Shown here in pieces: positions 24,936 through 43,200 of a stretch of DNA of 43,200 bases. The stretch lies in NCBI GenBank assembly GCA_965544015.1, contig CBEULV010000001.1, positions 1 to 43,200 on the forward strand. The letters run 5' to 3'. Made by a program: the position numbers and the translations under genes. How positions within the stretch are numbered: position 1 is the stretch's first letter; every line of letters begins with the position of its first letter. The notes under the pieces were generated by a model. The model was given only the letters and a program-made list of their open reading frames with translations, had not been told where the DNA came from and searched no databases. The DNA comes from an uncultured Gammaproteobacteria bacterium. Its GTDB lineage: Bacteria > Pseudomonadota > Gammaproteobacteria > UBA9214.

Positions 24936-27581
24936 ATGGCTGAACCCTATGTAATCAAGATGCCCCAGCTCTCCGACACCATGACGGAAGGTGTCATTGT
25001 CAGCTGGGAAAAGAATATTGGTGACGCGGTCAAGCGCGGCGACATCGTGGCCACGGTCGAAACCGATAAGGCCGTGATGGACGTGGAAGTATTCCGTGAC
25101 GGCTATCTTTCCGGGCCGGCTGCGCCTGTCGACGCCGTGGTGCCGGTCACGCATCCGATTGCCTACCTGGTGGAAGAAAAAGCCGATGTTGACGACAGCG
25201 AGGCAAAGGCTGTCGTACAGTCCGTGGCCGAGACCACGGCCCGGGCAGCTGCCACGGCTGCTACATCCGCAATACCCGCGCCAGTGCCGGGTAGCGCACC
25301 CATGCCACGGCCACAGGGTAACAAGGCTTCGCCGCTGGCGCGCAGACTGGCGACGGAAACGGGTACCGATATTGATCGCATCAGCGGTTCCGGCCCGGGC
25401 GGCGTGGTGACGGCGTCAGATGTGCAGCGTGCCCCGGCACCATTTGAAGTTGCCGTGCCCGGTAATGGTCGTCCGATGAAATCCATGGAAAAGGCGATTT
25501 CGCGTGCCATGGCTTCCTCGATCTCGATGCCGACTTTCCGGGTTACCTCGCATATCCACCTGGAAGGCCTGATCAGCGCAGCCAAGGCCGCCGGTATTTC
25601 GGTGACCGTGGCAATAGCCAAGGCCTGCGGACAGGCCATTGCCAGCCATCCGAAGATGAACTGGTGCTACCAGCCGGATGACAAGCTGATCGAGCGCAGC
25701 CAGGTAGACATCGGCATGGCGGTGGCAGCCGATGACGGCGGACTGGTGGTGCCGATCCTGCGTGATTGTGAAACACGCGAGTTGCCCGAGTTGAACACGG
25801 ACTGGAAGGACCTGGTGGCGCGGGCGCGCAGCCGGCACCTCAACCCGGAGGAATTCACCGGCGCGACATTCCAGATTTCCAATATGGGCATGTTCGATAT
25901 CAGTTACTTCGATGCCATCGCCACGCCGGGCCTGGCCGCGATCCTGGCGATCTCGTCGAACACGGAGAAGGGCAGTGCATTTACCATTACGGCCGACCAT
26001 CGCGTCGTCAACGGCGCCGATGTTGCGCTGTTCCTGAGTACCCTCAAGGAACTTGTCCAGCAACCGGCCGACTGGATGGGGCCGGGTGGCCAGGCCATCC
26101 CGGAAGGCGACTGGGACTATGATGTGGTCGTCATCGGCGGCGGACCGGGGGGCGAAGACTGCGCGCGCGACCTGGTGGCACACCGGCTGAAGGTCGCGCT
26201 GGTCAACGATGCACCGTTCCCGGGTGGCGAGTGCCTGTGGCGCGGTTGTATTCCGTCCAAGGCCTGGCGTGCCGCGGCCGACCGCATGCGTGATCGCGCC
26301 GGCGACGCGCAGCTTGGCGTGACCGGCACCGACAAAGCGAAGCTGGTATGGAAAGACCTCGAACAACATCGCCGCAAGGTGCTGGAGACACGGGGCGAGA
26401 TGGCGCTCAAGACCGACAAGGGTGTGCGCATCGACTATCTGCAGGGATTTGGCCAGTTTGTGGATGCACACACACTGGCTATTAATACGTCTACCAACAG
26501 CAACGACCCGCATGCACGTGCACGGATACCGGAAGACAGGGCCGGAAAGGCCGTTACCTTCGGCTGCGCGGTGATCGCCACCGGTGCGCCGCCATTTGTT
26601 CCGCCGATTCCCGGTGCACAGGAAGGACTCGACAGTGGTGGTGTGCTGACCTCCGATACCGTATGGGCGCTGGATGCGCCACCGAAGAAACTTGCTGTTA
26701 TCGGTGGTGGTGCGATCGGCGTCGAGATGGCGCAGATCTTTCATGACTTTGGCGCCCGTGTCACGCTGCTGGAGGCGCAAGCGCGCATCCTTGCCGAGGT
26801 CGAGCCGGAGATCGCGAAAACCACGGCCGGGATCCTTGCCGATGAAGCGCGACTGGATGTGCTGACTGGCGCCGCAGTCAATAAAATCAGCGGTACGCCA
26901 GGGGCCATGAAGCTGGCCTATACCGATGCCGATGGCAAGAAGCGTAAGCTCACCGTGGATTACGTCATCATGGCAACCGGCAAGCGGCCGGTGCTGACCG
27001 GTCTCAATCTGGAAGCCGCCGGTGTTGCCAGTGAGCGCAGCATCGTCACGGCCGACAGCCGTTGTCGTACCAGTGTGCCGCATATCTTTGCCGTGGGTGA
27101 TGTGATTGGTGGCTTGATGCTTGCGCATACCGCGGCACAGCAGGGGCGGGTTGCGGCGGCAACTATCCTGGGCGAGAACATGCAGTATGACCAGAGCAAG
27201 GACTGTGGTGTGATCTTCTCGCGTCCGCAGGCAGCCTTCGTCGGCCTGTCCGTTGAACAGGCAAAGGCGCGGGGCATGGATGTGGCCGAGGTGAAGGTGC
27301 CGATGAACATCGACGCCAAGGCAATGATCAACAATGAAACGCATGGCATGATCAAGATTGTGGCGGACAAGGCAACGCACCGCGTGGTGGGTGTGCACTT
27401 CCTGGCCGATCATGCCGACACGCTGATCGGCGAGGCGGTCATGATGGTTGCAGCCGACATGACACTGGAGCAGGTGGGCGAGGCGATCCATCCGCACCCG
27501 ACCCAGACCGAACTGTTTGGTGACATGGCGCGACGCCTGCTGTCACGCCTGCGTCGCAGCAAGAAAAGGGCAAAGGCATAA
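24936..27581 (+). CDS. Fused E2-E3: lipoyl domain + E3/E1-binding domain + acyltransferase catalytic domain + dihydrolipoyl dehydrogenase
   Basis: Single 881-aa ORF. Lipoyl domain with [11 protein letters not shown] (Lys45). Ala/Pro linker. PSBD segment [32 protein letters not shown]. Catalytic core ending [10 protein letters not shown]...[11 protein letters not shown] (about aa 381). Then [17 protein letters not shown], the redox disulfide [13 protein letters not shown], the NAD fold [13 protein letters not shown] and the C-terminal HPHPTQTE, all typical of E3. Confidence 0.85.
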
Positions 27582-35370: not shown

Positions 35371-38300
35371 CTATTGCAGTGCCATTTGTGTAATCAGAAT
35401 CAGGTCCTGAATATTGATTACACCGTCCGGGGCGCCGGACGGGTACAGGTCGCCATGCTGCAGCAGATGATTGTCTACCGGGATCAGGCCCAGCACGGCG
35501 CGAGTGAGAACCCAGAGATCACCCGCATTTACTGCATTGTCCAGGGTGCCGGGCGGGAGCGGTGCCACATCACCGTCGTTGAAGTTGAACGCCAGCGGTA
35601 TCGGGTCGACCGGGTCGAGCAGGCCGTCGCCATCGGTGTCCGCGCTGGCAGGATTCAGATCGGCGCCCGGTGTGTAGCTGTTCGGGTCACCGTCCCAGGC
35701 CACCTCCTCGAAGTCGGTCAGTCCGTCACCGTCGGTGTCAATGAGTATGGTGCTGGAGCCGGCTGACTGTTCCAGCAGGTCACTCAGTCCATCGTTGTCA
35801 TCATCCAGGTCACAGGCGTCGCCACTGCCGTCGGTGTCGGTGTCCAGCTGAGTGGCGTTGGCGATGGTCGGGCAGTTGTCGCAGGCATCGCCGGGACCGT
35901 CACCATCCTGGTCGGTCTGGCTCAGGTTGGCATCAATTGGGCAGTTGTCGTCCAGATTAAATATGGTGTCCTCGTCGGCATCGATCGCTATACGCTCACC
36001 GTCACCGACGGGTACAGCCGTGTAGGTTAGTGTCTCGCCGGTTGCTAACACCTGGTCACGTATAAAGGCCTCCGACAGGTCGCCCAGCGCGATACTGTCC
36101 ATCCTGAACAGCCCGCTGGAAACGCGCACCGCACCACGCTGCAAGCTCCCAAGGTTGCCCTTGATGATCACATCACAGTCGCCGGCCGCCGCGCGCGCCA
36201 CCAGCAGGTCGGCACGGGTCGCGGCGATTGAGGGGCTGCTGCTCACGGTCACCTGCTGGCCGACCACCGGTTTCAGATTGGAGTCGAAGGCGAGCATGAA
36301 TTGTTCGACATCACGGCGATGCTCGTCCGGTGTTTTCTGGTTCTCGATAATGAAATTGGCGCTGGTATCGAAGCCGAACAAGGAGGCATTAAAAAACCGG
36401 AACAGCGTATCGGTGCTGCCGTCATGCAGGAACCCGAAACCACGGATCTGGTCACCCTGTGGCCCATTGTTGCCGGTATTGAAGAACGGCAGGTCCGGCA
36501 TGCCGAACATGCCGACCTTGGCATACATGTTGCGCAGGTGGGGGACCTTGAAATGCTGCGGCTCACCCTCGAAGCTGGACAGCCCGCTGGTGCCGAAGAA
36601 GCCATTGGTGGTATCCAGTACGTGGCAACCGTTGCAGGTGGTCACTATGTCGGAGACATGGTTGAAATAGAAATCACGACCGTCACTCTGGCTGGTTGTA
36701 AGGGAATTATTCAGGTTGCGGATCGGGTTGGGTGGCAGGGCGACCTGCAGGATGAAGTCGGTGTACTGGTCCATTTCCGCTGTCGTCAGCGGCCCGCTGC
36801 GGCCCAGCAGCCCCTCGAAGGCCACATTGAACTTGCTGAACGAGAGTCGCTCGTTGTAAGCGCCTGTTCGGTTCACTATATCGTTGGGTTCATCGTTGCC
36901 GCCGGTACGGTCGCCGCGCCAGTGCATGGAGCCATGGGTGTCCATGCCGCGCAGTGTTTGTGTGGTCATCGGTCCCTTCATGGGGTGGAAGTCCTGTCCC
37001 CCACCGGTCGGACTCGGATCCAGCGGGTTGGTGAGGATCGAGCCGGTGGGGTCGCCGAGGTCCCAGGCCAGGCTGTCGAGGTCGCCATCGACGTGGCAGC
37101 TGGCGCAGGCCGCCTCGCCGTTGCTGGAGGTGAAGCTCGCGTCATACAGGAAGCGGCGTCCGGTGATGAGGTCCGGCGGCTCCGGATTGTGCAGCAGGTA
37201 ATGCGCAGCTTCCGTCCGGTTAGTGAGATCGAGGATCGATACGCCGTTATCGAAACGCGTGGTCACATAGAGGCGATTGCGGGCTTCATCCAGCAACAGG
37301 CCGGCGGGGCCACCGCCACTGACCGCGATGTGGTCGGCGCTGTCCGGCACGAAGGTGTTGTCCTCGATGTCAGCACTTAAAAAGATGCCGACCTTGTCGG
37401 ACCCCTTGGCGGCCAAATAGAGCGTGCTGCCGTTGCTGGAGATTGCCAGTTGGCGCGGCAGCGCCAGGCTCTTGTCGGCCACACCGGCCGGTGCCGGTGA
37501 CACACTGTAATCGATGTGCTTGTTGATATGGCGTGGTGTCACCGTGTCGGAGCCGGTATCGATGACGGTGATGCGCGTTTCATGCTGGTGGCCTATCACC
37601 GAGCTGGTGGTGTCGGTCGGCGTACGCGTGCCTTCGAAGCGCACTTCGTTGATGGCCTCGGTGTTGACGACAAACAGCTTGCCGTTTACCGGGTGTACCG
37701 CGATATTATAGAGAACAGTGCCGACACCGCTATAGAAGGCCGTTTCCACCGGCGGGTTGGCCAGTGCATCGATCGCGAACACATCCTTGTCCGGCAGGTC
37801 GAAGCGGACCAGCCCGTCCCACAGCCGGCCTAGTTCATCAACCCAGTTGCTGCCATTGTGCCTGACGATCAGTCCCACTTCCGGCTGCAGTGAATTGTCC
37901 GAGTCCACGTTCGGCGCCGGCAGGCCACCGGGTGCCGTGGCACCATCGACTGTACAACTTGGCGCAGTTGCACCGCCGTTACAGACGGCTTCGCCATGGA
38001 TGGTGGTGGTCCTGTTGCCGGAGTGATAGATCCCGGCATACACGGTGCTGCCGTCAGGTGAAACCGCCAGTGGCCGCGGCGTATCACCAAACAGCGTAAC
38101 AATGGTGAGAGGTGTACCACCCAGCGCACCGCCCAGCGTTGTGGCATCGAATACCCACACATCGGCACGGCCGATACCGGGCGTGGTGGCTTCACCGGGG
38201 TTCCCCGGGGTCACGCACTTGCTATCGCTGCTGTCACCGCACCAGGGACTGTTCTGACCGCGGTGCGCGGTTGTAATGAAGGCACGGTTGCCGCCCGGCC

Positions 38301-38709
38301 CGGCAAAGACGATATCGCGGGGTTCGTCGCCCACCAGCAGGGTGCGGGTGATGCGCGGTGGGGAGAGCGACACATCGATGATACTGATGGAGTCGGACAG
38401 GTGGTTAACCACCCAGACCTCATTGTCATTGCGCAATGCCACGGCAACCGGTTCCATTCCGGTCGGAATGGAAGTGGTGAGCGTCAATCCGAAACTGTCG
38501 ACCGAGAAGACCTCGAGCAGGTTGTCGGGCGTGTTGACGACATAGAGGCGGTCACCAGTGGAAGACATGGCCAGCGGGCGCACATGGCCACTTTCGAAAG
38601 CGGTAAATGCGGCGTGTGCTGTTGCCTGCAGCAGTAACAGCAGGATCGCGACAAGGCATCGGTCGATTGCAGACAGAGGGTGTCGGTTGGTGTTAAATCC
38701 GGGTTTCAT
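35371..38709 (-). CDS. Large secreted multidomain protein: beta-propeller + di-heme cytochrome c peroxidase-like domain + TSP type-3 Ca-binding repeats + dockerin-like C-terminus
   Basis: 1112 aa. Signal peptide ...LLLLLQATAHA/AF. Repeated YVVNT / LFVVNT / LYVTT strand motifs (aa 40-500). CASCH at nt 37093-37107 and CNGCH at nt 36622-36636, plus FKVPHLRNMYAK, a CCP/MauG-like block. DxDxDGxxDxCD repeats at aa 920-1035. The tandem segments GDVAPL...AGDLWVLTRAVLG and GDLYPSGAPDGVINIQDLILITQMAL look dockerin-like. Confidence 0.8.
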   Translation of the reverse strand: MKPGFNTNRHPLSAIDRCLVAILLLLLQATAHAAFTAFESGHVRPLAMSSTGDRLYVVNTPDNLLEVFSVDSFGLTLTTSIPTGMEPVAVALRNDNEVWVVNHLSDSISIIDVSLSPPRITRTLLVGDEPRDIVFAGPGGNRAFITTAHRGQNSPWCGDSSDSKCVTPGNPGEATTPGIGRADVWVFDATTLGGALGGTPLTIVTLFGDTPRPLAVSPDGSTVYAGIYHSGNRTTTIHGEAVCNGGATAPSCTVDGATAPGGLPAPNVDSDNSLQPEVGLIVRHNGSNWVDELGRLWDGLVRFDLPDKDVFAIDALANPPVETAFYSGVGTVLYNIAVHPVNGKLFVVNTEAINEVRFEGTRTPTDTTSSVIGHQHETRITVIDTGSDTVTPRHINKHIDYSVSPAPAGVADKSLALPRQLAISSNGSTLYLAAKGSDKVGIFLSADIEDNTFVPDSADHIAVSGGGPAGLLLDEARNRLYVTTRFDNGVSILDLTNRTEAAHYLLHNPEPPDLITGRRFLYDASFTSSNGEAACASCHVDGDLDSLAWDLGDPTGSILTNPLDPSPTGGGQDFHPMKGPMTTQTLRGMDTHGSMHWRGDRTGGNDEPNDIVNRTGAYNERLSFSKFNVAFEGLLGRSGPLTTAEMDQYTDFILQVALPPNPIRNLNNSLTTSQSDGRDFYFNHVSDIVTTCNGCHVLDTTNGFFGTSGLSSFEGEPQHFKVPHLRNMYAKVGMFGMPDLPFFNTGNNGPQGDQIRGFGFLHDGSTDTLFRFFNASLFGFDTSANFIIENQKTPDEHRRDVEQFMLAFDSNLKPVVGQQVTVSSSPSIAATRADLLVARAAAGDCDVIIKGNLGSLQRGAVRVSSGLFRMDSIALGDLSEAFIRDQVLATGETLTYTAVPVGDGERIAIDADEDTIFNLDDNCPIDANLSQTDQDGDGPGDACDNCPTIANATQLDTDTDGSGDACDLDDDNDGLSDLLEQSAGSSTILIDTDGDGLTDFEEVAWDGDPNSYTPGADLNPASADTDGDGLLDPVDPIPLAFNFNDGDVAPLPPGTLDNAVNAGDLWVLTRAVLGLIPVDNHLLQHGDLYPSGAPDGVINIQDLILITQMALQ

Positions 38710-38866: not shown

Positions 38867-40396
38867 TCAGGAGTTTTGCAGGGTCTGACTTTCCGCTGTT
38901 ACATCGGGATGCAGTTCGCTAAGTGGCACCGAGAGCCCGTTATTGCCTACCACCCGTGCATGGAAGCGTTTCAGTTCGCGCGGTTCCTTTACGCCGCAGG
39001 AGTGCGCGATGATGCCGACTTCGTAGACCATGTTTTTTGCATAGTGTGCAACGCGGACTGCCTTGTGTTCGGGATTCAGACCGCGTTGCAGGCGTTTGTT
39101 GTGCGTGGTGATGCCGGTTGGGCAGGTATTCCTGTTGCATTGCAGGGCCTGAATACAACCGAGTGCAAACATGAAGCCGCGTGCGGAAACTATGAAGTCG
39201 GCACCCATGCACAGGGCCCATGCTACGTCTGCCGGTGTGACAAGCTTGCCGGAGGCGATGATCTTGATGCGCTCGCGCAATCCATACTCGTTGAGTTTGT
39301 CGATCAGCAACGGCAGACTCTCGCGCAATGGCAGGCCGACATCATCGATCAGCGGCATTGGCGCGGCGCCGGTGCCGCCGTCTGCGCTGTCCACGGTGAT
39401 GAAATCCGGTGCGCATTCGCTGCCGCGTTCGTTGATCTCCGTGAACAAGCCGTCCAGCCAGCCGTAGGCGCCGATGACGGCCTTGAAGCCAACCGGCTTG
39501 CCGGTGACCTTGCGTACCCGGTGGATGACATCGAGCAGCTCGCTGTTGGAATTGATGTCCAGGTGCCGGTTCGGGCTGATGGCATCGCAGCCTGCCTCGA
39601 TACCACGGATTTTTGCAATCTCCTCGGTGACCTTGATGCCGGGCAGGATACCGCCCTTGCCGGGCTTGGCGCCCTGGCTCAGCTTTATCTCGAACATGCG
39701 CACGGCGTCATGGGCCGCGGTCTCTCGCAGCTTGTCATCGTTCAGGTTGCCCTCCCGGTCGCGCACACCGTTCTTGGCGGTACCAATCTGAAACACGATG
39801 TCGGCACCACCCTCGAGATGGTAGGGCGACAGACCACCCTCACCGGTATTCATCCAGCAGCCGGCCTTGTTGGCGCCATGCGAGAGTGCCAGTATCGCCG
39901 GCTTCGAGATGGCGCCGTAACTCATGCCGGAAATATTGAACAGGGAACTGGTCGTGTAGGGCGTTGCACAGTGCGGTCCGATTGTCACGCTGCGTGGCGG
40001 GACGGCGTCCTGCCCAAGGGTGGGAAAGGGGCAATTCACGAACAGTACCGTCCCGACCGGGCGCAGGTCACGGGTGGAGCCGAAGCCTACGGTGTTGTCG
40101 ATATTCTTGGCGGCGCGGTAGACCCATGTTCGCTGGGCCCGATTAAAGGGCATCTCTTCGCGGTCCATGGCGAAGAAATACTGGCGGAAGAAACTGCCAA
40201 GATGCTCGAAGAAATAGCGGAAGTGACCGACCACAGGGTAATTGCGCCGGATCGCACTTTTGGTCTGGGTAATGTCGAGAATGAAGGTGACAACGACGAC
40301 GAGTACGCCTATCCCGATCAGCACCACGAACAGGGTTGCCATGATGTCCATGACCGCGGTGACCAGCGAGAATGTTTCTGCTGAGGTCATGTCCAT
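38867..40396 (-). CDS. Membrane-anchored FMN-binding glutamate synthase-family (GltB domain 2-like) protein
   Basis: 509 aa. N-terminal TM segment IMATLFVVLIGIGVLVVVVTFIL. Contains ISGMSYGAIS, NTGEGGLSP, EIKLSQGAKPGKGGILPG, VDSADGGTGAAP and ASGKLVTPADVAWALCMGADF, typical of the Glu_synthase FMN domain. Confidence 0.85.
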   Translation of the reverse strand: MDMTSAETFSLVTAVMDIMATLFVVLIGIGVLVVVVTFILDITQTKSAIRRNYPVVGHFRYFFEHLGSFFRQYFFAMDREEMPFNRAQRTWVYRAAKNIDNTVGFGSTRDLRPVGTVLFVNCPFPTLGQDAVPPRSVTIGPHCATPYTTSSLFNISGMSYGAISKPAILALSHGANKAGCWMNTGEGGLSPYHLEGGADIVFQIGTAKNGVRDREGNLNDDKLRETAAHDAVRMFEIKLSQGAKPGKGGILPGIKVTEEIAKIRGIEAGCDAISPNRHLDINSNSELLDVIHRVRKVTGKPVGFKAVIGAYGWLDGLFTEINERGSECAPDFITVDSADGGTGAAPMPLIDDVGLPLRESLPLLIDKLNEYGLRERIKIIASGKLVTPADVAWALCMGADFIVSARGFMFALGCIQALQCNRNTCPTGITTHNKRLQRGLNPEHKAVRVAHYAKNMVYEVGIIAHSCGVKEPRELKRFHARVVGNNGLSVPLSELHPDVTAESQTLQNS

Positions 40397-40438: not shown

Positions 40439-41044
40439 TCAACAACTACCAGTGGTTCTCCAGCGTCGTGCGATCCAGTAATCCAGGCTGAAGTATCTGC
40501 CAGCACCTATGAAGAACAGTGCCAGTAACATGATGAAATAGGTGGCGGCAAACTCGATGCCGTTCTTCAGGATGGTGATGCTGCCGGCCTCGGTCAGCCA
40601 TTCGTAGTTGGCGTGTTCACGCAGGATTTCCCTGGCCTTCTCCTTGCGGATGCTGGCCTCCTCGATCAGGTCCGTGCGCCATTCCCATGGTACCGTCAAA
40701 TCTGTCTCCGGCAAGACATGCCAGCCGTTCTCCCAATGTGCGGTGGTGGCGGCAACGAACATGGTAAACATCAGTGGAATGGCAAACCAGCGTACCGCAA
40801 AGCCGCCGAGCAGCGCGATACCGCCCAGCAGTTCTGTCAGTGCGGCGACATAGACCATGATCTCGGGTGCCGGGATGCCAAGCGAGGCAAAGTAGGGGCC
40901 GAGGTCTTCCGCGTATGCCAGCTTGTTGGAACCAGCCATGATGAGAATCGGCGCAAGGTAGATGCGCAGAGCCAGCGGTGCCAGGAAATCGATAGCACGG
41001 CTACGGTCCAGCAGGCCCTGCAGGCAATTCAGTAATCGGATCAT
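40439..41044 (-). CDS. DoxX-family membrane protein of the MNIO operon
   Basis: Start at MIRLLNCLQGLL (ATG 41044); the track start at 41170 would overlap the upstream gene. Contains LAPLALRIYLAPILIMAGSNKL and ELLGGIALLGGFAVRW. A soluble insert of about 60 aa lies between hydrophobic segments. Confidence 0.8.
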   Translation of the reverse strand: MIRLLNCLQGLLDRSRAIDFLAPLALRIYLAPILIMAGSNKLAYAEDLGPYFASLGIPAPEIMVYVAALTELLGGIALLGGFAVRWFAIPLMFTMFVAATTAHWENGWHVLPETDLTVPWEWRTDLIEEASIRKEKAREILREHANYEWLTEAGSITILKNGIEFAATYFIMLLALFFIGAGRYFSLDYWIARRWRTTGSC

Positions 41045-41093: not shown

Positions 41094-41876
41094 CTACTGC
41101 CGCCTTGTTCCGATAACGATCGATTTTTTCCTGAGATTGTCCAGAATTTCCGCGCCGCCACTGACCACAACCTCAGGCTGCGGGTGGGACAACTCCCCGG
41201 CGATCTGTAGCAGCAACTTGCGTCCGCTGGCTATATCCGATGTCTCCAGCAGTTCCAGCAGTCGCTTGGTGACCGGGTTGATTTCCATGAAACCAACTTC
41301 ATCCTCATTGTCGCGGTAAACCACCAGGAAAGTGGGGATCCTGTCCTCAGGGCCGGGCAGAAAGTCCGGACCGATCCTGTGTACCGGGTATTGATAGGCC
41401 AGGTGCCAGGCCAGTGGCGACAGCACCGGTATCCCGTCTAACAGGTCCCCGGTGGTATCGATGTCGTCATAATTCAGCGTGTCGTCTGCAACGGAGACAG
41501 CCAGTTCCGCCCATTCGTAGTGGGCCAGGTCATACAGAAAGGGCAGGTCATCTTCCCGGGCGGTGCGTTCCTCGTGTAGCCAGTTGAGAAATTCGCGGGG
41601 GATTTCAAGGAATAGTGGTGTGCGCGACAGGTGCGAGGAGAAATAATCCCGTACCAGCGCATGCCAGGCATCATCGTCGTAAATTTTCCTCAGTACCGGG
41701 AATGTGTTGGATAGAAAACTTTCGACATTGTTGTAGAACAGCTCACGGTAGATCGCCATGCGCCGGTCTTCCACATCTCCGGGTGCCGGCTGATGTTCGG
41801 GGTCACGGATATGCGCGGCAAATTCGTATTGCCGGCGAATGAATTCAGGCCTGTTTTCCATGCGAGATGTCGCCAT
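41094..41876 (-). CDS. DUF2063-family protein (MbnC/HvfC/BufC-type partner of the MNIO enzyme)
   Basis: 255-260 aa. Contains [52 protein letters not shown] and LAHYEWAE, characteristic of DUF2063. Overlaps the MNIO gene 3' end by 32 nt (ATG 41876) or 17 nt (ATG 41861). Confidence 0.8.
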
Positions 41877-42708
41877 GTTCGTTGCCCCATTTGTCCTGCA
41901 GCGAGGCGATCTGGCCTACCTCGCCAAGCAACTCCGGTAGTGGCGGGATGTTGAAGTCACGCTCCAGCAGGGTAGGGACCACGCCGAAATGCGCATAGGC
42001 CTTTTCCAGTAGCGCCCATACCGGGTCGATAATCGGTGCGCCGTGCGTATCTACCTTCAGATCATCGGCCTCGTCATAGTGGCCGGCGATGTGGAAGTAT
42101 GCCACACGTTCGGCTGGCAATGATTTCAGGAAGGTCTCTGCATCATAGCCATGGTTGATGCTGTTCACGTAGATATTGTTGACGTCCAGCAACAGGTCAC
42201 AGTCGGCCTCTGCGAGTACCGCGTTGATAAACTCGATTTCGTCCATCTCCTTGCCCGGTGCTGCATAGTAGGAGACATTTTCCATGGCGATACGACGTTC
42301 CAGGATGTCCTGTACGCGCCGTATGCGCGCGGCTACATAGTGTACCGCTTCCCCGGTGAACGGGATCGGCATCAGGTCATAGAGATGACCGTCATCGCTG
42401 CAGTAGCTCAGGTGTTCGGAGTAATAGCGGAAGTTGTGTTCGTCCAGCAACTTCCTGACACGGTGCAGGAAGGTCTCGTCCAGCGGGGCCGGGCTACCGA
42501 TGGAGAGTGACAGGCCGTGTGCCACGAACGGATAGCGCTCGGTGAAGTAACGGAGCTGCTTGCCGAGTTTGCCACCTACACCTATCCAGTTCTCGGGGGC
42601 AACCTCGAAAAAATCAACAGTATCCGGCGGGTTGTCCCGCAGCGGACCCATCAGGGTCCGCCGCAGGCCAAGTCCGGATCCTTCAACAGGATAGTTTGAT
42701 GAAGCCAC
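41845..42708 (-). CDS. DUF692 / MbnB-like multinuclear non-heme iron oxidative enzyme (MNIO)
   Basis: 287 aa with a GTG start. Contains [70 protein letters not shown] and PTLLERD, the TIM-barrel metal-ligand blocks of DUF692. Starts 15 nt after the precursor stop. Confidence 0.85.
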
Positions 42709-42723
42709 GACAGTGTTTACTGC

Positions 42724-43185
42724 CTACTTCTGGGCGCCGCATTTACCTTCGCCGCACTTGCCTTCCTTGTCGGCCTTCTTCTCGGCACCACATTTTCCTT
42801 CCATTGCTTTCATTTCACTGGCATCGAGCACGCCATCGCCATTTTTGTCCCTCTTGATGAACATGGCCTCGTGTGCTGCATTGAACTCGTCCCTGGTGAT
42901 CTTGCCATCGCCGTCGGCATCCATCATTTCCATGCCGCACTTGCCTTCACCGCACTTGCCTTCACCGGCAGCCTTCTTCTCGCCGCCACACTTGCCTTCT
43001 GCGCCTGCCTTCTTCTCGCCACCGCACTTGCCTTCAGCCATCTCGGCAACCATGTAACCGCTGGACAAATCGGACATGGCAAACGGGTTTTCCGCTGCGT
43101 TGGCAACGCTGGTGCCGGCCAGGGACGTCACGAAGGCAGCACCCATTGCAATGGCCAGCGGCTTGAGAGTTGATTTTTTTGACAT
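42724..43185 (-). CDS. Secreted EGKCG-repeat protein with central EF-hand pair; predicted MNIO substrate (HvfA/bufferin-like RiPP precursor)
   Basis: 153 aa. Sec signal MSKKSTLKPLAIAMGAAFVTSLAGTSVANA/AE. Seven exact EGKCG units (Cys54, 66, 78, 83, 132, 144, 149 are the only cysteines). EF-hand loops DADGDGKITRDE and DKNGDGVLDASE. Confidence 0.8.
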   Translation of the reverse strand: MSKKSTLKPLAIAMGAAFVTSLAGTSVANAAENPFAMSDLSSGYMVAEMAEGKCGGEKKAGAEGKCGGEKKAAGEGKCGEGKCGMEMMDADGDGKITRDEFNAAHEAMFIKRDKNGDGVLDASEMKAMEGKCGAEKKADKEGKCGEGKCGAQK

Positions 43186-43190
43186 TGATA

Positions 43191-43196
43191 TGTCTC
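43191..43196 (-). promoter_or_regulatory. Shine-Dalgarno sequence of the precursor gene
   Basis: The reverse complement reads AGGAGA, followed by a 7-nt spacer and the ATG at 43185. Confidence 0.55.
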
Positions 43197-43200
43197 CTAG

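Follow-up and report, generated by a model that had tools for sequence, protein, structure and literature searches.

This study focused on a small gene at the end of a contig from an uncultured gammaproteobacterium (GenBank assembly GCA_965544015.1, contig CBEULV010000001.1, positions 1 to 43,200; this whole 43,200-nt stretch is referred to below as the window). The product combines a pair of EF-hand loops with seven EGKCG units, and the locus thus raises the question of what kind of protein this is, and whether calcium at its center could influence copper at its cysteines, as had been proposed in a sequence-only reading of the same DNA. The combination of EF-hands and cysteine repeats is real, but it belongs to an already described family, that of HvfA (oxazolin) and of the Pseudomonas aeruginosa protein EfhP. 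The best overall explanation, to which we assign a probability of roughly 0.8, is that the gene specifies a precursor exported by Sec and belonging to the HvfA/oxazolin-bufferin ("captophorin") type, in an EfhP subtype with an EF-hand pair, and that it passes through the steps of modification, export and metal binding set out below. In these, a neighboring iron enzyme probably converts the cysteines of the repeat arms into copper-binding groups, as in characterized relatives.

The precursor gene and its product

The gene, its ribosome binding site and the parts of its product occupy the following positions.

42724..43185, minus strand: hvfA/efhP-type precursor gene, 153 aa plus stop (ORF translation, NF050137, Pfam EF-hand_5/1/6)
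43194..43198, minus strand: Shine-Dalgarno sequence AGGAG, 8 nt before the precursor ATG (read from the sequence)
43096..43185, minus strand: predicted Sec-type signal peptide, aa 1-30, with KK n-region, hydrophobic core and cleavage motif ANA↓AE (sequence features only)
43036..43095, minus strand: conserved post-signal segment ENPFAMSDLSSGYMVAEMA, aa 31-50, candidate HvfC docking site
42934..43035, minus strand: N arm, four EGKCG units (Cys54, 66, 78, 83) as two singles and one EGKCGEGKCG doublet; pLDDT <50
42802..42933, minus strand: EF-hand pair cassette, aa 85-128, two loops and a 12-residue joining helix (Pfam, PROSITE, AF2)
42886-42921, minus strand: EF loop 1, DADGDGKITRDE, aa 89-100 (PROSITE PS00018)
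42814-42849, minus strand: EF loop 2, DKNGDGVLDASE, aa 113-124 (PROSITE PS00018)
42727..42801, minus strand: C arm, three EGKCG units (Cys132; doublet Cys144/149), with the best NF050137 stretch at aa 126-151; pLDDT <50

The protein runs in the order putative signal peptide, conserved NPF..GY segment, four EGKCG units, two EF-hand loops, and three further EGKCG units. Its translated first half can be written as MSKKSTLKPLAIAMGAAFVTSLAGTSVANA↓AENPFAMSDLSSGYMVAEMA-EGKCG-GEKKAGA-EGKCG-GEKKAAG-EGKCG-EGKCG-MEMM-DADGDGKITRDE, and the half that follows DADGDGKITRDE as FNAAHEAMFIKR-DKNGDGVLDASE-MKAM-EGKCG-AEKKADK-EGKCG-EGKCG-AQK. Every one of the cysteines in the 153-aa translation (Cys54, 66, 78, 83, 132, 144, and 149) lies within an exact EGKCG. 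Translation and the PS00018 matches reproduced exactly what had been read from the letters alone, that is, the open reading frame, the seven cysteine positions, the GEKKAGA/GEKKAAG linkers, and the coordinates of both loops.

Family assignment came from the NCBIfam model NF050137 (KCGExKCG_twice, "HvfA family oxazolone/thioamide-modified RiPP metallophore"), which matched the precursor over three stretches with 55 bits (cut-off, 19.5). The HvfA equivalog model NF050188 was missed (37.5 bits; cut-off, 95), with the C arm alone aligning. A six-frame scan of the window for clustered [KR]CG gave no second copy of the precursor.

The features of the predicted signal peptide (KK n-region, hydrophobic core, and ANA↓AE motif) were kept across an alignment of 40 homologs; A30 was invariant in this alignment (A1), and the AF2 model shows a helix at aa 13-22 within the predicted signal peptide. 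In the segment that follows, N33, P34, F35, G43, and Y44 were invariant among the 40 aligned sequences, a P[FL]..GY motif is likewise present in the Lysobacterales clade described below, and we infer that ENPFAMSDLSSGYMVAEMA is a candidate docking site for HvfC. The contig stops at position 43200, 15 nt upstream of the precursor ATG, so that the promoter lies outside the window; the sequence immediately upstream of the gene was also found in three relatives (L081, L082, and L083).

The operon and its genomic neighborhood

The precursor gene is the first of four consecutive genes on the minus strand, in the order hvfA-hvfB-hvfC-hvfX, and all four products score above their NCBIfam cut-offs. A fifth gene lies downstream of hvfX.

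41845..42708, minus strand: hvfB, MNIO (DUF692) maturase; NF003818 449 bits against 360, PF05114 E 2.7e-107; GTG start uncertain
41094..41876, minus strand: hvfC, DUF2063 and RRE-type partner protein; NF050145 317.6 bits against 142, matches to PF09836 and PF22106
40439..41044, minus strand: hvfX, DoxX-type membrane protein; NF050144 187.5 bits against 80; the longest ORF reaches 41170
38867..40396, minus strand: membrane-anchored FMN protein of the glutamate-synthase family; PF01645 E 1.1e-86

The hvfB gene begins 15 nt downstream of the precursor gene, and its product scored under the BufB equivalog cut-off (276 against 310 bits). The NF050144 match begins at residue 62 of the long hvfX frame, and the start of hvfX is likely the ATG at 41044, behind GGAGGA.

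A scan of a genome collection with the family alignment returned 80 loci, of which only twelve (L001-L012) were true relatives; most of the 80 are generic EF-hand proteins, because the back-translated patterns used were derived from the EF loops. P. aeruginosa was not among the 80 loci, and the nearest of them belonged to MAGs of Gammaproteobacteria/Ectothiorhodospiraceae. The gene order A-B-C(-X) was kept in six of the relatives (L001, L002, L003, L006, L010, and L012), with orthologs of the FMN protein directly behind hvfX in L002, L003, and L006, and four others (L005, L007, L009, and L011) hold orphan precursors without an adjoining maturase. In related genomes the precursor gene sits behind a housekeeping rnf-nth cluster, and no dedicated regulator was found upstream of it there.

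The operon bears directly on one alternative, namely that the protein is an EfhP-like periplasmic Ca2+ sensor whose EGKCG cysteines remain thiols that sense iron or redox state, rather than being maturase substrates that chelate copper. EfhP shows a Ca2+-dependent conformational change, with virulence and iron-uptake phenotypes, and iron sensing through its four EGKCG repeats and their cysteines has been proposed by its authors (PMC9132961; bioRxiv 10.1101/2024.01.09.574892); the orphan precursors without adjoining hvfBC genes are also compatible with such a role. However, only 15 nt downstream of the precursor gene there is a gene for an MNIO of the HvfB family, with that for HvfC behind it, and both products exceed their equivalog cut-offs by far; the same EGKCG motifs undergo complete modification in HvfA, FonA, and NgoA (PMC11252979; bioRxiv 10.1101/2025.11.18.689057). 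A pure thiol sensor is therefore regarded as distinctly unlikely here, and the roles of sensor and copper chelator are in any case not mutually exclusive.

The EF-hand pair

Pfam models EF-hand_5, EF-hand_1, and EF-hand_6 all exceeded their gathering scores on the precursor (E about 1e-10), with EF-hand_5 (PF13202) matching two stretches at E 1.4e-10, while the EF-hand_7 pair model PF13499 remained below its cut-off (27.6 against 30). The description of the two as canonical EF-hands thus holds for the loops, which are recognized by both PROSITE and Pfam, but not for the pair. A calmodulin-type canonical pair consists of helix-loop-helix twice over and has its loops about 24-25 residues apart; the precursor departs from this arrangement in its condensed spacer of 12 residues and in the lack of a predicted entering helix before loop 1 in the AF2 model.

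That model, which was built from a 40-sequence alignment, reached pLDDT values of 79-82 over roughly aa 90-127, where it places helices at 98-112 and 122-126; in the arms (aa 47-83 and 129-153) the values were under 50. Although only moderately confident, it supports a small ordered hairpin at the center of the protein with unstructured arms on either side, and in this it agrees with the folded centre and flexible arms envisaged beforehand. A Foldseek search of the PDB with the AF2 model gave no match at E<=0.001, a result that is uninformative for a model with so short an ordered part and with disordered arms.

Among solved structures, the best match by sequence was lanmodulin 6mi5 (E 1.7e-8), whose loops are also 12 residues apart, and the NCBIfam LanM model NF053806 aligned with aa 16-131 of the precursor at E 2.2e-8. 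Lanmodulin (6mi5/8fns) is a periplasmic protein with a signal peptide, as predicted for the precursor, and further resembles it in DxDxDG-type loops and a 12-residue joining helix, and likely also in metal-induced folding. These matches suggest an alternative in which the loops bind lanthanides, or some other trivalent or alternative metal, instead of Ca2+, and the protein would then be a rare-earth/copper dual metallophore. The LanM score, however, was only 34.2 bits, far short of the cut-off of 135, and the precursor has two loops instead of four. A proline at loop position 2 is reportedly the hallmark of LanM, but this position is A or K in the precursor and proline in 0 of 111 homologs (A, T, S, or M in loop 1; mainly A, K, Q, or T in loop 2). 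The cysteine-repeat flanks and the RiPP operon are further differences from lanmodulin. Membership of the lanmodulin family was rejected, since the low score, the two loops and the missing proline make the likeness one of geometry rather than of membership in that family. EfhP binds Ca2+ with a Kd of 13.7 uM and a change in conformation, and is reported to be Ca2+-selective; these data refer to unmodified recombinant protein, for which N was about 1 and not 2 (PMC9132961). Taken together, lanthanide binding appears very improbable, and Ca2+ is the preferred ligand in what follows.

Conservation of the architecture among homologs

Database searching gave 5757 relatives of the precursor at E<=1e-3, and the two-EF arrangement was surveyed in the best 120 of these 5757 homologs together with a second, Lysobacterales-type clade. 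Exactly two EF loops were present in 111 of the best 120, and in all 111 of these KCG units stood on both sides of the pair; among the same best 120, arm sizes ranged from 1 to 7 units on the N side and from 1 to 6 on the C side. In the Lysobacterales-type clade, which has a spacer of 14-16 residues between the loops, as does EfhP, units were found on both sides in 106 of 115 two-EF proteins. With both clades combined, EGKCG units flank the EF pair on both sides in 217 of 226 two-EF homologs, and the recurrence of this arrangement in more than 200 homologs confirms that it goes beyond chance. Members with EF-hands from isolates (Pseudoxanthomonas, Luteimonas, and Pseudofulvimonas) are named HvfA family metallophores by NCBI/UniRef; there was no Pseudomonas entry among the 240 homologs listed.

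The EF-hand ligands predicted from the single sequence proved to be conserved in all 111 close homologs of the alignment. D1 and E12 were present in 111/111, Gly6 in 109-110 of the 111, and position 8 was always I, V, or L; loop positions 3, 5, 6, and 8 are nearly invariant in this set, and the spacer between the loops was 12 residues in every case. The N-side junction is also fixed: of 225 proteins from both clades, 218 have the last N-arm cysteine 6 residues ahead of D1 in loop 1, and with this constant distance the last EGKCG unit stands where an entering helix of EF1 would be. On the other side, the spacing between loop 2 and the first cysteine of the C arm varies from 4 to 18 residues. 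The total of cysteines per protein runs from 3 to 12, and odd totals are common in the family.

Repeat polymorphism, and probable gain and loss of the EF module

At the DNA level, the units had been described as encoded by near-identical 15-mers, and this was only partly borne out. The 15-mer GAAGGCAAGTGCGGC occurs in just two exact copies, in the units at aa 80-84 and aa 141-145, and the other five EGKCG units differ from it by 1, 1, 1, 2, and 4 bases. When compared with a simulation from the codon usage of the window itself, the likeness of all seven units was marginally above expectation (P about 0.08), and that of the four N-arm units was significant (P about 0.015), so that codon bias as the sole cause of the 15-mers is partly rejected and the claim stands best for the N arm. 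The glutamate codon of the units is GAA in 7/7, as against 53% GAG among the glutamate codons of the genes in the window.

The suggestion that repeat number might vary was upheld, both by the range of arm sizes given above and by close relatives that differ at the following site.

42948..43036, minus strand: 36-nt tandem repeat, 2.5 copies with 83% matches (TRF); site of repeat-number polymorphism

The two closest metagenomic relatives, L082 and L081, have about 95% DNA identity to the window outside the N arm and differ from it here, in frame, by -36 and +36 nt, respectively, and the 36 nt missing from L082 correspond to exactly one EGKCGGEKKAGA period. The EF cassette and C arm of both are the same as in the window. 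A larger difference was seen in seven close relatives, which lack EF-hands yet agree with the precursor in the predicted signal peptide and the NPF..GY segment; three of the seven occupy the same nth-hvfA locus. One of these proteins without EF-hands, L083, comes from a sequence highly similar to the window from the ribosome binding site through the N arm, and the homology breaks directly behind the EGKCGEGKCG doublet, which is the start of the EF cassette. In a further homolog, P0117, the cassette and a flanking unit have been duplicated to give four loops. This pattern fits recombination between EGKCG units, which may move both single 36-nt periods and the whole EF module, although the relatives with indels and those without EF-hands are short metagenomic contigs in which assembly artefacts within repeats are possible.

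The presence of alleles without EF-hands at the same locus in close relatives, together with the wide variation in arm length and cysteine total (3 to 12), could also mean that the EF pair has no coupling role at all. It would then serve passively for solubility or spacing, or buffer Ca2+ on its own, within a stochastic copper-sequestering array, and its presence would be near-neutral; stochastic copper binding by EGKCG peptides is suspected by the authors of the fontiphorin study (bioRxiv 10.1101/2025.11.18.689057). Against this stands the near invariance of the EF ligands, of the 12-residue spacer, and of the 6-residue distance from cysteine to D1 across two divergent clades, which argues for selection on calcium binding and on the N-side junction. 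A passive role is, in our view, fairly unlikely.

Relationship to HvfA, EfhP and other known systems

The chemistry expected of the preferred reading, a modified and exported captophorin precursor, is best known from the hvf operon of non-typeable H. influenzae, where HvfBC oxidizes all six EGKCG cysteines of HvfA, with a change of -4 Da each, and where the modified protein binds Cu(I) in a manner that fits one Cu(I) per pair of modified cysteines (PMC11252979). Truncations of HvfA revealed that modification requires neither the signal peptide nor the N-region (PMC11252979), in line with the earlier view that the substrate is not a classical leader-core peptide. The modification was first called oxazolone/thioamide and is now regarded as 5-thiooxazole, and the name captophorins has been given to EGKCG peptides and bufferins together (bioRxiv 10.1101/2025.11.18.689057; 10.64898/2026.06.05.730506). 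In vitro, FonBC required two adjacent repeats, and a peptide with a single repeat was not modified (bioRxiv 10.1101/2025.11.18.689057).

HvfA/oxazolin, FonA (fontiphorin), and NgoA (gonophorin) have a Sec signal peptide, as predicted for the precursor, and share EGKCG(EGKCG) motifs with it, and the HvfA-type captophorins also have neighbors of the hvfB, hvfC, and hvfX type; by analogy, the same conversion of cysteine to 5-thiooxazole and the same binding of Cu(I) would be expected here. Unlike the precursor, all three are without an EF-hand domain. The N-terminal disulfide of HvfA (C38/C43) is absent from the precursor, and the units of the latter, in contrast to those of HvfA-type proteins, are split over two arms and include isolated singles. 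The bufferins Buf1 (DUF2282) and Buf2 resemble the precursor in the operon logic of an MNIO, a DUF2063 partner and a DoxX protein, and Sec export and periplasmic copper chelation by 5-thiooxazole would be further shared properties, but the fold and motifs of their precursors are different, DUF2282 being a folded domain with ordered copper binding.

In EfhP (PA4107) of P. aeruginosa the EF loops span residues 88-99 and 115-126, and its gene shares an operon with DUF692 and DUF2063 genes (PMC4053335). At its N-terminus EfhP has a signal peptide or TM-like helix, the former being predicted for the precursor as well, and the two proteins share a short EGKCG segment without structure and a pair of EF-hand_5 loops, which in the precursor lie at nearly the same positions (89-100 and 113-124). 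In both cases DUF692, DUF2063, and DoxX genes follow, and the EGKCG regions are disordered according to AlphaFold. The spacer between the loops is 15 residues in EfhP, as calculated from the published loop positions, versus 12 in the precursor. The published account of EfhP names an N-terminal EGKCG domain only, whereas the precursor and 217 of 226 homologs also possess a C-terminal arm.

A class of chimeras that join Buf_EGKCG and EF-hand_5 has been described (PMC12452194), and the precursor belongs with it, as it contains two EF-hand_5 domains and a short EGKCG segment, with a period of 12 residues and not repeats of 17 residues. The portion of that description dealing with these chimeras reports that their EGKCG part is unstructured by AlphaFold2, suggests a role in Ca2+ homeostasis or signaling, "as exemplified by EfhP", and places the EF-hands C-terminal to the EGKCG domain (PMC12452194). 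Since the EF-hands are placed in this way there, the C-terminal EGKCG arm appears to be under-described rather than new. The literature on EfhP with MNIO enzymes, and on EF-hands with thiooxazoles, yielded, as searched here, a single bioinformatic paper and no experimentally modified EF-hand chimera.

Proposed mechanism

The modification chemistry and Cu(I) binding assumed in the following steps are those demonstrated for the relatives HvfA and FonA, and the Ca2+ binding is that of EfhP. In the cytoplasm, where free Ca2+ is presumably low, the precursor would for that reason be largely unfolded. The complex of HvfB (the MNIO) and HvfC would then oxidize EGKCG cysteines to 5-thiooxazoles, most surely at the doublets Cys78/83 and Cys144/149, and less surely at the three isolated single units (Cys54, 66, and 132). 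Export would occur via Sec, with cleavage of the signal peptide after ANA. In the Ca2+-rich periplasm, the central segment of 40 residues would fold round one or two Ca2+ to form a compact loop-helix-loop-helix unit with lanmodulin-like spacing, and the thiooxazole arms would chelate Cu(I) at about one Cu per two heterocycles.

The sequence-only reading had allowed for up to seven copper sites, but this is an overcount, given that the oxazolin data indicate one Cu(I) per pair of modified cysteines (PMC11252979) and that FonBC needs two adjacent repeats (bioRxiv 10.1101/2025.11.18.689057); with seven cysteines, about three sites would be expected. Because odd cysteine totals are common in the family, strict pairing within one molecule cannot be the general rule, and some heterocycles must either pair between molecules, stay unpaired, or stay unmodified.

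As the last heterocycle of the N arm lies 6 residues before the first calcium ligand in nearly all homologs, it is probable that the binding of Ca2+ sets the position of the N-arm doublet at least, and possible that it draws both arms together. The fixed junction argues for some structural coupling between the calcium site and the nearest copper ligands, and the idea that Ca2+ occupancy is coupled to copper binding, which formed part of the earlier proposal, is a reasonable hypothesis.

A more specific form of this idea is that the EF pair acts as a Ca2+-triggered clasp, in which folding in the periplasm joins the N-arm doublet with units of the C arm to create Cu(I) sites between the arms, and in which the EF cassette is mobile. 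The unfolded state in the low-Ca2+ cytoplasm would allow HvfBC and the Sec machinery to handle the chain, and the product would be a calcium-gated copper chelator, or else a copper-modulated calcium sensor, which would account for the metal and virulence phenotypes of EfhP. The EF cassette would be swapped as a mobile module by recombination between the EGKCG units that flank it. This combination of properties is considered speculative and, as a whole, unlikely.

Significance

The window provides a clean and typical gammaproteobacterial example of the family. Several family-level facts are absent from the published descriptions, to the extent covered by their available text: the EGKCG units flanking the EF pair at either end, the fixed junction from cysteine to loop, the lanmodulin-like loop spacing, the polymorphism of the 36-nt period in the N arm, and the alleles without EF-hands at the same locus. 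These will be useful for the choice of constructs, but they would not surprise a specialist. If the coupling of Ca2+ and Cu(I) is true, it would supply a mechanism for EfhP, a virulence modulator of P. aeruginosa with DUF692/DUF2063 neighbors, and it would be a first case in which a second metal governs the geometry of a protein that bears a RiPP-type modification.

The precursor and its homologues

The segment that follows the signal peptide of the hvfA precursor carries a motif picked out by sequence conservation:

43036..43095, minus strand, aa 31-50: post-signal motif NPF..(L)..GY

The motif was invariant in an alignment of 40 homologues and recurred as P[FL]..GY in the second homologue clade, that of the Lysobacterales. 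The NPF..GY motif is a candidate docking site for HvfC, the RRE-type partner. The signal peptide and the NPF..GY segment are also common to the window precursor and to precursors without EF-hands, which were found in close relatives at the same nth-hvfA locus:

L083:1227-1538: EF-hand-less precursor
L084:794-1192: EF-hand-less precursor
P0086 contig: EF-hand-less precursor

When L083 was compared with the window, homology stopped at the EGKCG doublet, at the point where the EF cassette begins. The cassette is also found duplicated, as in the metagenomic homologue P0117 (190 aa), where it was repeated in tandem together with one flanking KCG unit, giving four EF loops in total, with a KCG unit separating the two pairs. 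Other EF-hand/EGKCG precursors were orphans:

L005:3995-4519: orphan EF-hand/EGKCG precursor
L007, L009, L011: further orphans

In these four loci of related genomes, hvfB, hvfC and hvfX were not found within 4 kb of the precursors. In L005, nth still precedes the precursor, which is followed on the opposite strand by genes for an aldehyde dehydrogenase and a TPP enzyme.

Other proteins of the window

Three further genes were assigned features:

24936..27581, plus strand: 881-aa ORF with lipoyl, E2 and dihydrolipoamide dehydrogenase domain matches
35371..38709, minus strand: 1112-aa protein, two genes downstream of hvfX
38867..40396, minus strand: glutamate-synthase-family FMN protein with a membrane anchor, directly after hvfX

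Matches in the single 881-aa ORF cover a lipoyl domain, an E3-binding domain and the E2 catalytic domain of a 2-oxoacid dehydrogenase, together with an entire dihydrolipoamide dehydrogenase (Pyr_redox_2 and Pyr_redox_dim); from these matches the ORF looks like an E2-E3 fusion. The N-terminus of the 1112-aa protein resembles a signal peptide. This protein also gave a weak match to a 7-bladed beta-propeller and carries two haem-binding CxxCH motifs (CASCH and CNGCH) and, near its C-terminus, thrombospondin type-3 Ca-binding repeats; the matches placed it in no family.

The FMN gene was kept in its position after hvfX in three related loci (L002, L003 and L006), at 81-86% identity. One of these, L003 (CAVYIJ010000003.1), is a MAG contig labelled 'uncultured Halobacteria archaeon', but is probably mis-binned or mislabelled, since it carries an rnf-nth-hvfABCX-gltS locus of gammaproteobacterial type and its HvfB shares ~80% amino acid identity with that of the window. 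The FMN glutamate-synthase-family gene may represent an accessory redox gene of the hvf cluster.
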